A stretch of DNA of 64,000 bases from Escherichia phage JacquesWildberger_Bas92. Location of the stretch: the sequence record PQ850610.1; one strand, written 5' to 3'. The notes below the pieces were generated by a model that worked only from the letters and a program-made list of their open reading frames with translations, was not told the origin of the DNA and ran no database searches. Positions 3,110 through 54,104 of the stretch are shown in pieces. The position numbers were made by a program, and so were the translations under genes. Within the stretch, counting starts at the first letter, position 1, and each line of letters begins with the position of its first letter.

Positions 3110-3118
3110 TAATGTATA
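3110..3118 (+). promoter_or_regulatory. TAATGTATA motif (candidate phage-sigma promoter element)
   Basis: Exact TAATGTATA 34 nt upstream of the ATG at 3152, directly after a terminator; same 9-mer recurs upstream of other genes. Confidence 0.45.
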
Positions 3119-20057: not shown

Positions 20058-20066
20058 TAATGTATA
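20058..20066 (+). promoter_or_regulatory. TAATGTATA motif (candidate phage-sigma promoter element)
   Basis: Exact TAATGTATA 39 nt upstream of the ATG at 20105; the track ORF start at 20060 is the ATG inside this motif. Confidence 0.45.
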
Positions 20067-28516: not shown

Positions 28517-28525
28517 TATACATTA
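28517..28525 (-). promoter_or_regulatory. TAATGTATA motif, minus strand
   Basis: Plus-strand tatacatta; about 60 nt upstream of the SSB start. Confidence 0.4.
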
Positions 28526-28588: not shown

Positions 28589-28597
28589 TAATGTATA
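28589..28597 (+). promoter_or_regulatory. TAATGTATA motif, plus strand, no obvious plus-strand gene downstream
   Basis: Exact 9-mer in a 420 bp intergenic region. Confidence 0.3.
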
Positions 28598-30357: not shown

Positions 30358-32202
30358 TTAGTGTGTATGCATCCAGTTTAACCCAATCTGACAATCAGAA
30401 GCCAGAGGACATTCCATGTTCAAGTACTCACCAGCCTTCTTAACACAAAGCTCGGTGTACTCTTTGAGTTTCTGTACATCATTACGGTTCACTGAGAACT
30501 GGCCCTCATCGTGCATATCAATTACCTTAGCACAACGAACTCCATCTTTCTCAATCCACTTGTTAAGGAACATCATAGCATATTTCATAACAACAGCACC
30601 AGCACATTGCAGGAGTGTGTTAAGGGCTTTATGAACCATAACCTTACCAGTGGCATCCCGTCTCATTGTAATCTTACGACCATCAACGCCAATCAAATAC
30701 CCTTGAGCAGCTTTCTCTGTCATACGATCAATGAGGATTGCAATACATGGGTTCTCTGCCAAGAAGCGTGCTCGCATCACTGAACCTTCGTCAGCTCCAC
30801 CACCTACGATTGAACCAAGCTTAGCATCACCAGCACCATAGTTAAACGCGTAGATAAACGTTTTAGCGTTGTCACGAGTAGGAAGACCAGCAAGTTTCTG
30901 GTTGTGGGAGTGGATATCACCTTCAAGAAGGATATCACGATACATAATAGCAGAAGCTAAACCACGTTCTGCCAGAGCTTTCTTAGCTGGATTATTCTCT
31001 TCGATTGCTTCAGCAAGCATATCCCTACACTCTTTAATGAGGTAGTGAGCGAGCATACGAAGTTCAAGTCCAGAACCATCATACCCTAAGAATACTTCTT
31101 TACCAGCGGGTATGTAATATTTGTAAGCACCTACAGGCTTATCTTTCTTCCCCGGCTTACCTTTCTCGTAAATTACGTTAGTACCTTTTCGTATATAACA
31201 ACCATCAGGAACAACGTTAGTAATAACGAAAGGACGAGAGTGATCACTGTCTGAATTATAGTCAGACTCAAACAAACTGCGACACTCATGACCAAACAAA
31301 CCACGGGAGGGAATATTAACCACGATACGATGTTTGAATCGAAAAGTTGGCGTAGCGCAGCTGTTAGCTTCTGCCGAAAGTTTACCATCTTCGCGTTCCT
31401 TTGCTATGAGTCCACTGATAAGACCTAGCCTGTGAGCCGCTACAACGCGCCTCTTAAGCAAACTTCCAACACTCCCTAGCTCGCCCCCTAACCCTTCTTC
31501 AAGAGTCTCCTCGAGGTTTGTAGGAGCTGTAGGCCACTTGTTTGAGGTAGCTAGTGCTATCTTAATCTCATCAAACGTGATAGGTCTACTTCGGTTAGGG
31601 TTTAAACCTAAACCAAACACATAAGCCTTCATATAGTTCTTAGTCTTAAACCTAAAATGCTTCTCTAAGAACCTCCTAATATCTGCGTCAACCATCTCGG
31701 CTGTCTGCTTCTGTTTAGCATTACCTCGCATCCAAGCTGAATACCATGCTTGGTATGTCCCATACTTTCGAATATCTTTCTTGATTTCAAAAGTATTCCA
31801 AGGTTTCTTTGATACGTTAAACTCTGGAGGAAGAAAACCCTCATCCATAAGGGCTTCTTTAACTCGTGCATCTTTCGATGGGTCAAAGTCTACATACTCA
31901 ACACAGGTGAATGCTCCACCAATGTCTTCTCTCTTAAGGCCAACTCTATCACAGTAGGCTTGAGGCCACTTCTGTAAAGCTCCAGACTTCTTAAATGGCT
32001 TCATATAAGTAGAGCCATCTAATCTCATCTTAGGTAAGAGAGGGATCAGTTCTTTGTCGATATTAACAATAATCTCTTTAAGGAGGTGAACATACCACCG
32101 AGCATTTCTTCGGTTGAAACTCACTCCGTGCTTCGCTTGCTTAGAGATTATATCAGCGACAGTCATCTCTGTCAAAAATGGGAGAGCGTCCGGGTTGCTC
32201 AC
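30358..32202 (-). CDS. DNA polymerase, family A, polymerase domain only
   Basis: 614 aa; motif A (LGYDGSGLELRMLAHY), motif B (RDNAKTFIYAFNYGAG), motif C (IDMHDEGQF); no 3'-5' exonuclease motifs in this ORF. Confidence 0.85.
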   Translation of the reverse strand: MSNPDALPFLTEMTVADIISKQAKHGVSFNRRNARWYVHLLKEIIVNIDKELIPLLPKMRLDGSTYMKPFKKSGALQKWPQAYCDRVGLKREDIGGAFTCVEYVDFDPSKDARVKEALMDEGFLPPEFNVSKKPWNTFEIKKDIRKYGTYQAWYSAWMRGNAKQKQTAEMVDADIRRFLEKHFRFKTKNYMKAYVFGLGLNPNRSRPITFDEIKIALATSNKWPTAPTNLEETLEEGLGGELGSVGSLLKRRVVAAHRLGLISGLIAKEREDGKLSAEANSCATPTFRFKHRIVVNIPSRGLFGHECRSLFESDYNSDSDHSRPFVITNVVPDGCYIRKGTNVIYEKGKPGKKDKPVGAYKYYIPAGKEVFLGYDGSGLELRMLAHYLIKECRDMLAEAIEENNPAKKALAERGLASAIMYRDILLEGDIHSHNQKLAGLPTRDNAKTFIYAFNYGAGDAKLGSIVGGGADEGSVMRARFLAENPCIAILIDRMTEKAAQGYLIGVDGRKITMRRDATGKVMVHKALNTLLQCAGAVVMKYAMMFLNKWIEKDGVRCAKVIDMHDEGQFSVNRNDVQKLKEYTELCVKKAGEYLNMECPLASDCQIGLNWMHTH

Positions 32203-33321: not shown

Positions 33322-33330
33322 TATACATTA
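33322..33330 (-). promoter_or_regulatory. TAATGTATA motif, minus strand
   Basis: Plus-strand tatacatta; about 40 nt upstream of the 33285 start. Confidence 0.45.
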
Positions 33331-36346: not shown

Positions 36347-36365
36347 ATTCATATCCTTATAAATA

Positions 36366-36395
36366 GAAAACCCCGTCTATTCCTAGACAGGGCTT
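36366..36395 (-). terminator. rho-independent terminator (minus strand)
   Basis: Minus-strand hairpin ccctgtcta-ggaa-tagacgggg followed by ttttctatt. Confidence 0.5.
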
Positions 36396-36401
36396 GAGTT
36401 T

Positions 36402-36965
36402 TTAGTAAGACACATCACCACTTGAGTGGGACATGTTGCTCTTGACGAAGTAGCAATACTTGCCAAGACCTTCATTGATTTCTTGAAGCATACTTTGATC
36501 GACTGGATAAGTGGCTAAATCGCCATCAAACTCATCCATCTTCTCAATAATACACATCAAGGTCATGCACATATCAGAGAGCATACCGTCCATGTCTAGA
36601 TCAGCGTTACCCTCTGAGAACCAAGCATGAGAGAGGTAGTTAGCTGCTGTAGCATCCACTTTAACACAGTGGTAACGCATACGTTCAGCAATACGATCTC
36701 CTACTTGTCGTGCGTAATCTTCCAGCTCGTCAAACATACCATGAACACCCTGAAATCCTGCACCAGAGACGTTCCAGTGGTAGTTTTTAGCTTTGATGTG
36801 CAAGAGTTCCATATTAGCTTGTAAGCAGCTCAGGATGTGTTCTAGGCTGTTTCCGCTAATCATGCCTTGCATTGTTTCAAGGCGAGAGATTGAAAGCTCA
36901 GACCGGTCTAACATGCTGTAGCTGTCACGACCAATCTCAGGTAAATCAAAGACATTCTTATGCAT
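36402..36965 (-). CDS. Dps-like ferritin-family protein
   Basis: Motif KAKNYHWNVSGAGFQGVHGMFDE..IAER resembles the Dps signature; start set at ATG 36965 (GGAGAAA upstream; overlaps upstream stop). Confidence 0.55.
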   Translation of the reverse strand: MHKNVFDLPEIGRDSYSMLDRSELSISRLETMQGMISGNSLEHILSCLQANMELLHIKAKNYHWNVSGAGFQGVHGMFDELEDYARQVGDRIAERMRYHCVKVDATAANYLSHAWFSEGNADLDMDGMLSDMCMTLMCIIEKMDEFDGDLATYPVDQSMLQEINEGLGKYCYFVKSNMSHSSGDVSY

Positions 36966-37287
36966 TTGGGTTTTCTCCATCAAGTTCAACTGAGTTAGCA
37001 ACGTTACGTGCAATATTGTCCATTACCTGCTGGGTAATTACGATGCAGTTCTGTGGGTCTACTGACTTAGAACGCCCCATTTCTGGGTCATACACCTTAA
37101 CACGCTTAGCAGTTGAACCTGTAACCTGAAGAACCTTCAACAGATATCCCTGATTACCGATAGACCAAGCAACAACATCACGATTCTTGATAAAGCGACC
37201 AAGCATATCACGATGATAAAACTGTTGCATCACCTTGGATTTTGTAATCTCTTCAGTGGGCGGGGCCACTTTACTCAAATCTAACAT
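36958..37287 (-). CDS. hypothetical protein
   Basis: 109 aa ORF; AAATGTATA (1 mismatch to TAATGTATA) at 37327-37335 upstream. Confidence 0.45.
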   Translation of the reverse strand: MLDLSKVAPPTEEITKSKVMQQFYHRDMLGRFIKNRDVVAWSIGNQGYLLKVLQVTGSTAKRVKVYDPEMGRSKSVDPQNCIVITQQVMDNIARNVANSVELDGENPNA

Positions 37288-37359
37288 AACTCTCTCCTGT
37301 AAAATACAAACTCTTATTGTACTCTATATACATTTGAGAGTTACCATATCTACTACCAA

Positions 37360-37569: not shown

Positions 37570-38103
37570 TTACACACCTTTAGATGCAACTACACCTTCA
37601 GAGTTATTATAACGACCCTTCACTGCATAGGAATGCTCCCCTGCATGAGAGTGCTCAAACATGACCATCTGACCAACACGCATACCAGCACGAACTCGTA
37701 AGCTGTGGTGCTTTGTTACGTTATGAAATTCAAATGTCAGCTTACTGCTATTAAATCCAGCGTCTGCCCACCCAGCGTGGAGGTGGTTCAAACCACAACG
37801 AGCCATAGATGAACGCAGGACAAACAGGCTTGAAATGTTATCTGGAAGGTTAAACTCCTCCATAGAGTGAGCCAAGAAGAACTGACCCGGAGTGATAACC
37901 AAACCCTCTTCAGGAATTTTTACTTCCTTCCACTGAAGATTCTCTTTCGCATCAATATCAACGATGCCATCAGCCTGTTCTTCAACAAGGATAGTATCAC
38001 CAATACGGATATCCACACTAGCAGCGTTAACATACTTATGCTCCGCATCCAGATAGCCATTGTCAATTACATCATGCAGTTCAATACTTCCTAGTAAACT
38101 CAT
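37570..38103 (-). CDS. dCTP deaminase
   Basis: 177 aa; SVDIRIGD, LRSSMARCGL and GRYNNSEGVVASK blocks parallel E. coli Dcd. Confidence 0.75.
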   Translation of the reverse strand: MSLLGSIELHDVIDNGYLDAEHKYVNAASVDIRIGDTILVEEQADGIVDIDAKENLQWKEVKIPEEGLVITPGQFFLAHSMEEFNLPDNISSLFVLRSSMARCGLNHLHAGWADAGFNSSKLTFEFHNVTKHHSLRVRAGMRVGQMVMFEHSHAGEHSYAVKGRYNNSEGVVASKGV

Positions 38104-38112
38104 TCTTATTCC

Positions 38113-54029: not shown

Positions 54030-54104
54030 TGGCGTTCCCTCGTGGAATCGAACCACGAATAAGAGCTTAGAAGGCTCCAGTTATATCCGTTTAACTAAGG
54101 GAAC
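54030..54104 (-). tRNA. tRNA-Arg (anticodon UCU)
   Basis: 75 nt cloverleaf folded by hand: acceptor GTTCCCT/AGGGAAC, D stem GTTA/TAAC, anticodon stem GGAGC/GCTCT with loop CTTCTAA, T stem CGTGG/CCACG with loop TTCGATT, discriminator G, encoded CCA. Confidence 0.8.

Follow-up and report, generated by a model that had tools for sequence, protein, structure and literature searches.

A Dps gene in phage Bas92 and its annotation history

The DNA analysed here, referred to as the window, is a stretch of 64,000 nucleotides of Escherichia phage JacquesWildberger_Bas92 (sequence record PQ850610.1). Its minus strand carries a gene whose product, a protein of 21.2 kDa with an isoelectric point (pI) of 4.7, is assigned to the Dps-type mini-ferritins on the basis of profile matches and a predicted structure. 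The gene follows an orthologue of gene 68 of phage phiEco32 (gp68), with which it forms a predicted two-gene unit (Table 1). The phage is of the Kuravirus (phiEco32-like) type and belongs to the subfamily Gordonclarkvirinae, virulent podophages with prolate, very long heads (C3 morphotype). Over the 2.4 kb around the Dps gene, the DNA shares 99.6% identity with Escherichia phage AidaStucki_Bas93, 97.8% with LAMP and approximately 95% with phiEco32 and SU10. The orthologues in these phages (phiEco32 gp67, SU10 CDS67, the LAMP gene and Bas93_0056) share 99.5-100% amino acid identity with the window protein, and are likewise situated between gp68 and gp66/thioredoxin, with the same 8-nt overlap.

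Neither the gene nor its family assignment is new, and both are already on record. The phiEco32 record (EU330206; 2008) describes gp67 (phi32_67, ABY52868) as "DNA-binding protein; member of the Dps family", while in the SU10 genome paper a coding sequence (CDS) with a Dps domain is reported as common to all five C3 phages then known (PMC4281155). Since both sources name the Dps family or domain, the identity of the gene was already known. The detail added here to the known gene concerns the layout of the operon, an N-terminal extension specific to the clade and the absence of a lysine-rich tail.

A match to the region at the DNA level occurs in 98 phage records, and 97 records encode a protein with at least 80% identity over at least 80% of the query length. 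A scan of viral contigs yielded seventeen loci, mostly of known phages, to which more divergent loci were added through exact-protein look-up. The earlier note on this DNA considered a phage-encoded Dps unusual, which holds across phages overall, where the protein was matched in 136/50,697 records. It does not hold within the lineage, where the gene is annotated and virtually every Gordonclarkvirinae record contains it; the remaining C3 podophages examined here (7-11, Privateer, Cronobacter and Aeromonas phages) have it as well.

Family membership and predicted fold

The protein matches the Pfam family Ferritin (PF00210; score 31.1 bits, gathering threshold 24.5, E 2.5e-7), this being its sole Pfam match, and PHROG 3636 (E 2.6e-55). 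A search of the PDB with the single sequence returned sixty-two matches (best E 2.6e-9), nearly all of them Dps proteins, with only two unrelated proteins among them, both near the limit of E=1. With a family profile built from sixteen homologues (alignment A1), fifty PDB sequences were matched, all Dps or closely related ferritin-like proteins and nearly all named Dps, with Bacillus anthracis Dlp-2 the best match (E 5e-15, residues 39-171). Among 1.84 billion representative proteins, 3422 matched the profile at E<=1e-3 and seven at E<=1e-30. One protein in the search (P0032; 1156 amino acids, approximately twenty tandem repeats) matched the Dps profile in twenty short stretches (E 5.7e-26), most likely a repeat artefact rather than a Dps. 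The cut-offs of the NCBIfam Dps/DpsA equivalog models were not reached (NF006975, 34.5 against 114 bits; NF041388, 32.2 against 170; NF052461, 17.6 against 300).

The AlphaFold2 model of the single chain (predicted local distance difference test score (pLDDT) 79.7, predicted TM-score (pTM) 0.72) comprises helices A (residues 41-65), B (72-98), C (125-150) and D (154-176), along with a short BC helix (107-112) in the long loop between B and C. This predicted four-helix bundle has the topology of Dps. All of the best fifty Foldseek matches in the PDB are Dps or Dps-like proteins, with target TM-scores of up to 0.90 and root-mean-square deviations (rmsd) down to 1.3 A, and each of the closely matching entries is a dodecamer. 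The best matches in both sequence and fold are bacterial Dps proteins lacking DNA-binding tails, namely B. anthracis Dlp-2 (1jig), Bacillus subtilis MrgA (2chp), Staphylococcus aureus Dps (2d5k) and Mycobacterium smegmatis Dps2 (2z90), for which profile E-values range from 5e-15 to 1e-13 and target TM-scores from 0.79 to 0.90. They share the A-B-BC-C-D helix topology and the ferroxidase ligands with the phage protein at 22-27% identity. Unlike them, the phage protein is extended by 45 residues at the N-terminus, has a helix C rich in Met and Cys (DMCMTLMC) and is paired with an SH3-like operon partner.

Closer relatives of the same PHROG are found in other C3 podophages (Salmonella phage 7-11 gp73, Proteus phage Privateer gp068, Cronobacter phage GAP52 and Aeromonas phage LAh_8 gp125), with 31-45% identity, the same ferroxidase residues and a length of 146-156 amino acids without the extension. 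Dps-like genes have furthermore been reported in gut phages ('Gratiaviridae' and 'Flandersviridae') and Lactobacillus phages (PMC8008677). The Dps proteins of Lactobacillus phages LP65 and Semele are fold matches to the window protein, and these gut and Lactobacillus phage proteins belong to other lineages with anaerobic or Gram-positive hosts, at 16-24% identity. We know of no operon structure that they have in common with the window gene.

Thus the assignment to a Dps-like ferritin fold made in the earlier note is upheld by the profile searches and the structure prediction which it had proposed as checks. An open reading frame (ORF) of 148 amino acids at locus L028 was considered as a displaced Dps and rejected (hhalign probability 0.02). 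Many deposited Kuravirus genomes, including the ES17, IME267, CHD5UKE1 and KBNP1711 records, name the gene 'integrase'. With PF00210 as the sole Pfam match at E<=10 and only Dps proteins among the best Foldseek matches in the PDB, an integrase or recombinase identity was rejected and this label is a misannotation. In the genomes of therapeutic phages, it could result in strictly lytic phages being flagged as temperate.

The ferroxidase centre

In a gapless BLASTP alignment, residues 55-95 of the phage protein pair with residues 43-83 of Escherichia coli Dps (the sequence used is identical to PDB 1f30; see also 1dps), so that H63, W64, H75, D79, D90 and E94 align with H51, W52, H63, D67, D78 and E82, respectively. 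All ferroxidase-centre residues of the E. coli protein are thus kept, in agreement with the ferroxidase-site signature described in the earlier note. As the best matches are to ferritin/Dps proteins and the ferroxidase residues are complete, neither of the outcomes which that note had named as speaking against its assignment (best matches in a non-ferritin family, or missing ferroxidase residues) was encountered. The five ligands (H63, H75, D79, D90 and E94) are invariant in A1 and in a second alignment, A5, comprising twelve sequences of down to 18% identity (Kuravirus-type phages, Privateer, 7-11, LAh_8, two metagenomic phage lineages and E. coli Dps), while W64 is invariant in A1 and nearly so in A5. 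The core of the protein is under strong purifying selection, with proportions of non-synonymous differences (pN) of 0.08-0.27 against synonymous proportions (pS) of 0.6-0.9. The ferroxidase site is thus intact, and the protein is predicted to be catalytically competent.

A C-terminal motif is also similar between the two proteins (KFLWFIESN in E. coli Dps and KYCYFVKSN in the phage protein). The 39% identity revealed by BLASTP extends over 41 residues only and the phmmer E-value is 0.12; the gene was therefore not captured recently from the host, and the protein represents an old, phage-specific branch of the Dps family. In GC content, the gene (43.8%) matches the window (42.3%).

Two further groups of residues were distinguished. 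The protein contains fifteen Met and five Cys residues, and within the stretch MLSDMCMTLMC of helix C, which is unlike cellular Dps, M128, M132 and M134 are invariant and C133 is nearly invariant among Kuravirus-type homologues, the motif DMCM being invariant or nearly so. In the C-D loop region, where acidic residues line the ferritin-like three-fold pore of Dps proteins, the single-chain model has D147, D149 and D156, located in the loop or where helix D begins; the last is nearly invariant in the Kuravirus-type clade, with T in this column in other phage Dps proteins and E. coli Dps.

The N-terminal extension and the question of DNA binding

The extension is present in the Kuravirus-type homologues and missing from the shorter proteins of 7-11, Privateer and LAh_8. 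It comprises a conserved tip, MH(K/N)NxFDLP, and a helix bearing an S-x-x-R-L-E/D-x-M motif, joined by a linker that varies, and is modelled with low confidence (pLDDT 45-62). Although it evolves faster than the core, the ratio of non-synonymous to synonymous substitution rates (dN/dS) is 0.03-0.48 and the frame is kept through in-frame insertions and deletions across orthologues, which indicates that the extension is translated. A sole start at the nearly invariant M32, which would give a canonical Dps of 156 amino acids, was rejected, with codons 4-45 showing a dN/dS below 1 and a maintained frame; M32 may still serve as an internal start, if not as the only one.

The N-terminal 45 residues are acidic (four K/R against seven D/E; pI 5.0), replacing the Lys-rich, DNA-binding N-terminus of E. 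coli Dps, and the C-terminal 11 residues contain no K/R. A Lys/Arg-rich tail of the E. coli type is thus absent from both tails of the phage protein. Considering these acidic tails and the pI of 4.7, the sequence gives no backing for lysine-tail DNA binding of the E. coli type, and direct DNA binding is not predicted. The earlier note's suggestion of DNA protection, in so far as it involves binding, likewise lacks backing in the sequence. The words "DNA-binding protein" in the product name come from the name of the family.

The gp68-Dps unit

The predicted fold of the gp68 orthologue is KOW/Tudor-like. As stated in the earlier note, the start codon of the Dps gene overlaps the stop of the upstream ORF. 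The ATG (36965..36963) and the TAA of the 109-aa ORF (36960..36958) lie within ATGCATAA, giving an overlap of 8 nt, which is kept at the related loci L022 and L023 and extends to 11 nt in L024. The Shine-Dalgarno sequence of the Dps gene falls within the conserved C-terminal DGE codons of gp68 and is conserved as GGAG in L001, L008, L022 and L023, and as GGGGAGG in L024. Two upstream starts were considered. The Bas93 CDS begins 15 nt further upstream, at an ATG corresponding to 36980 that is not conserved (absent in L008 and L022), and a TTG at 37013 would give an ORF of 203 amino acids; both were rejected in favour of the ATG at 36965, which is conserved together with its GGAG.

The unit is preceded by a 72-nt intergenic gap in which AAATGTATA fits the single-element consensus tAATGTAtA of phi32_gp36-dependent promoters. 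The motif nAATGTATA is kept 45-55 nt upstream of the gp68 homologue in phiEco32, L008, L009, L022, L023 and L024, with varying flanks, and its conservation thus extends to phages with Dps proteins of only 53-56% identity. Furthermore, gene 68 of phiEco32 is one of six genes downstream of experimentally located gp36-dependent promoters (PMC8948821). With one mismatch allowed, the motif occurs 21 times in the window against 20 expected by chance, so the promoter call rests on position and conservation. Five exact copies of the consensus TAATGTATA are found in the window, and two of these, at 28517 (minus strand) and 28589 (plus strand), stand back to back, apparently at the border between rightward late and leftward middle genes.

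Downstream of the Dps gene, the terminator mentioned in the earlier note was located as a hairpin with a stem of 12 bp (five G-C pairs), a loop of 4 nt and the T-rich tail TTT TCTATTT. The hairpin has a folding energy of -17.8 kcal/mol (z = -3.7), and none of 200 shuffled sequences folded as well. A hairpin and T-run occur at the equivalent place in relatives, with differing stem sequences in L022-L024 and a weaker T-run in phiEco32 and L008. The order of the unit, with its promoter and terminator both predicted, is thus promoter, gp68, Dps and terminator. A gp68-like gene also lies immediately upstream of Dps in Privateer and LAh_8, and a gp68 homologue that is not adjacent occurs in 7-11.

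Among Kuravirus-type relatives gp68 is more conserved than Dps (84-94% against 53-68% identity). Together with the conserved, clade-specific tip and helix of the extension, this would fit a Dps fold that has been repurposed; through MH(N/K)NxFDLP the protein might, for instance, inhibit a host or defence factor or serve as a decoy for it, with iron chemistry incidental. The unusual resistance of the Gordonclarkvirinae to restriction-modification systems (PMC11990801) could be read in the same way. Such a change of function is highly improbable, as the ferroxidase ligands are invariant even in lineages without the extension, which argues that catalysis has been retained; no positive evidence was found for it, although no search was aimed at such a target or at defence systems.

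Table 1. Location of the gp68-Dps unit, its elements and other features in the window
Feature	Position	Strand	Details
Phage-sigma promoter motif AAATGTATA	37327..37335	-	about 48 nt upstream of the gp68 start codon
gp68 orthologue	36958..37287	-	109 aa, predicted SH3-like beta-barrel; first gene of the unit
Shine-Dalgarno GGAG of the Dps gene	36975..36978	-	9 nt upstream of the ATG, inside the 3' end of gp68
Dps mini-ferritin gene (predicted)	36402..36965	-	ATG at 36965, TAA end at 36402; 187 aa and stop
N-terminal extension	residues 1-45, 36831..36965	-	conserved tip, variable linker, predicted helix 18-37
Ferroxidase-centre segment KAKNYHWNVSGAGFQGVHGMFDELEDYARQVGDRIAERM	residues 58-96, 36678..36794	-	holds H63, W64, H75, D79, D90, E94
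Met/Cys-rich stretch of helix C	residues 128-138, 36552-36584	-	MLSDMCMTLMC
Intrinsic terminator-like hairpin and T-rich tail	36358..36395 (stem 36395..36368)	-	starts 6 nt past the Dps stop
dCTP deaminase and 433-aa nucleotidyltransferase	37573-39414	-	just upstream of the gp68-Dps unit
Exact copies of the consensus TAATGTATA	3110-3118 (+), 20058-20066 (+), 28517-28525 (-), 28589-28597 (+), 33322-33330 (-)		five copies
DNA polymerase ORF	30358..32202	-	intact, 614 aa
tRNA-Arg (anticodon TCT)	54030-54104	-	single; early-gene region

Genomic neighbourhood

The setting in a replication module, as described in the earlier note, is borne out by neighbours involved in replication and nucleotide metabolism. 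On the same strand, genes for a primase/helicase, a DNA polymerase exonuclease subunit, a nucleotidyltransferase and dCTP deaminase are located upstream of the unit. A membrane protein of 59 amino acids, thioredoxin, ThyX, a ligase-like protein, PhoH and DNA polymerase are encoded downstream. The order gp68, Dps, thioredoxin and ThyX is kept in relatives with 53-68% Dps identity, and some of these encode an anaerobic ribonucleotide reductase (RNR) in addition. The Dps genes of 7-11, Privateer, GAP52 and LAh_8 are likewise situated in a nucleotide-metabolism block. In Privateer, 7-11 and LAh_8 a standalone ATP-cone gene lies directly 3' of Dps, with NrdD/NrdG nearby in LAh_8. These ATP-cone proteins (90-99 amino acids; L002:4398-4694, L003:4411-4710 and L004:4429-4701) match Pfam PF03477 with E-values of 2e-20 to 2.5e-7, and the Privateer gene is annotated as 'ribonucleotide reductase'. 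The terminator and the 59-aa membrane protein are found in Kuravirus-type loci in the place of the ATP-cone gene of the other C3 phages. The Dps gene is thus consistently surrounded by genes for redox-sensitive enzymes that take part in dNTP synthesis. In the BASEL paper, dCTP deaminase and the nucleotidyltransferase are suggested to underlie an unidentified DNA modification behind the restriction resistance of these phages (PMC11990801).

This tight linkage to nucleotide metabolism, with NrdD, NrdG and ATP-cone proteins adjoining Dps in relatives, and the intact ferroxidase site would also fit a protein that serves as an iron store or chaperone more than in detoxification, buffering iron while dNTP synthesis surges and supplying iron-dependent nucleotide enzymes such as the class Ia RNR of the host or the [4Fe-4S] activase NrdG of the phage. 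This is considered unlikely. Neither the gene block of the window nor the examined annotations of Bas93 and phiEco32 showed an NrdD or NrdG gene, yet Dps is kept in these phages, and no iron-dependent enzyme is strictly co-conserved with it. Furthermore, Dps proteins are, to our knowledge, not iron donors for cofactor assembly.

Proposed role during phage DNA replication

The protein is probably a mini-ferritin with catalytic activity whose task is to remove Fe2+ and H2O2 while the phage DNA is being replicated. Transcribed together with gp68 from the gp36-type promoter to the hairpin terminator, as part of the middle-gene cluster, it would assemble into a hollow 12-mer by analogy with the solved Dps proteins. 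Fe2+ would be bound between two subunits, by H63, H75 and D79 of the one and D90 and E94 of its partner. H2O2 is the preferred oxidant in the family at large and would be so here too; the oxidised iron would be kept as a ferric core, so that both Fenton reagents would be removed. The replicating DNA and the enzymes of nucleotide synthesis may thereby be shielded from iron and peroxide damage, as the genomic context and the literature suggest. As further background to this role, ThyX flavoenzymes leak H2O2 in air.

In phages of the phiEco32 type, the action of the phage Dps would coincide with the shut-off of host transcription. The phiEco32 protein gp79 inhibits sigma-70 transcription (PMC8948821), and the host would therefore be unable to induce its own Dps and catalase response. 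Host dps, catalase and peroxiredoxin rank among the host genes with the strongest induction in another lytic infection (PMC7354516), and Benler et al. proposed that gut-phage Dps raises tolerance of oxidative stress during infection (PMC8008677). The SU10 orthologue gp67 was detected by mass spectrometry (35.8% coverage, six peptides; PMC4281155). The sample in this 2014 study was a lysate precipitated with polyethylene glycol, without CsCl purification, which also contained DNA polymerase and thioredoxin, and the detection therefore shows expression only.

Several observations weigh against this role. Phage 7-11 encodes a Dps yet does not shut off host transcription (PMC8948821), so the argument from a silenced host response is not general, and the host already carries a Dps of its own. 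The NCBIfam scores far below the cut-offs mark the protein as a divergent family member and not an equivalog of cellular Dps. A simple antioxidant function accounts neither for the coupling to gp68 nor for the conserved N-terminal extension. In the literature that could be searched, neither biochemical nor genetic experiments on a phage Dps were found, and on function it yielded nothing beyond annotations and two proteomic detections. The second of these detections, of the Privateer Dps among approximately ten proteins identified by mass spectrometry in CsCl-purified virions (PMC7881722), hints at a role in the particle.

Such a role, with Dps located in or on the long prolate C3 capsid or condensing DNA, and serving a structural or delivery function over an antioxidant one, is unlikely, although there is evidence on both sides. 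Besides the Privateer virions, it is favoured by the conservation of the Dps gene in the C3-morphotype lineages examined, and by the gp36-type promoter class, which also serves late genes (PMC8948821). In a variant, Dps would coat intracellular phage DNA, possibly through the N-terminal extension or with gp68 as adaptor, in line with the KOW/Tudor-like fold of the latter, which is often nucleic-acid- or protein-binding. However, the Privateer Dps detected in virions lacks the extension, the window protein and both its tails are acidic and without a Lys-rich tail, and the gene is located in the replication block rather than the structural block. The cryo-electron microscopy and mass spectrometry study of SU10 names gp20-24 as ejection proteins, with no Dps in its main text or structural-protein table, and the 2014 SU10 proteome, as evidence of expression, does not place the protein in virions. 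Finally, a Dps shell filled with iron has a high density and could end up in the same CsCl band as the phage.

Foldseek comparison against BFVD (entries A0A6J7XDU5, A0A6J7WPK9 and A0A6J7WIS1) revealed Dps-fold domains within 'Prohead protease' proteins of 333-763 amino acids from uncultured Caudovirales. These predicted structures, which likewise speak for an association with the particle, suggest that Dps domains are fused to capsid-internal proteins in some phages. Proteins of 290-680 amino acids from uncultured Caudovirales, named 'DNA-binding protein Dps', were also matched. It is decidedly unlikely that Dps and the coupled gp68 constitute a two-protein module physically associated with phage DNA or particles in C3 podophages. 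In such a module, the shell would be situated in or on the capsid; alternatively, gp68 or the extension would attach it to DNA that is being replicated or has been packaged. Either protection from iron and peroxide or a shell that condenses DNA would then be brought by the phage itself into the infection cycle or through it, comparable to the ferritin-like cargo of HK97-fold encapsulins.

If the protein is the iron- and peroxide-removing mini-ferritin favoured here, phages would bring their own detoxification for the burst of fast DNA synthesis, and the virus would replace a host stress response that it had itself silenced. The interest of this proposal is modest, since the annotation of the gene dates from 2008 and such a role had already been suggested for other phages. 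What remains of interest is that Dps is fixed in every C3 lineage examined, along with the gp68-Dps operon, the extension and the reported association with virions. The BASEL phages Bas86-94, which plate on E. coli K-12 with restored O-antigen, provide a tractable system.

Other features of the window

The DNA polymerase ORF is intact in the window, while the Bas93 record annotates the polymerase as two joined pieces with an endonuclease VII ORF between them. Either the window differs from Bas93 here or the mapping of the coordinates is off. An intron or homing-endonuclease insertion in the polymerase gene of the window was considered and rejected, the ORF being intact and without an Rfam match. 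A single tRNA gene, for tRNA-Arg, is located in the early-gene region (Table 1).

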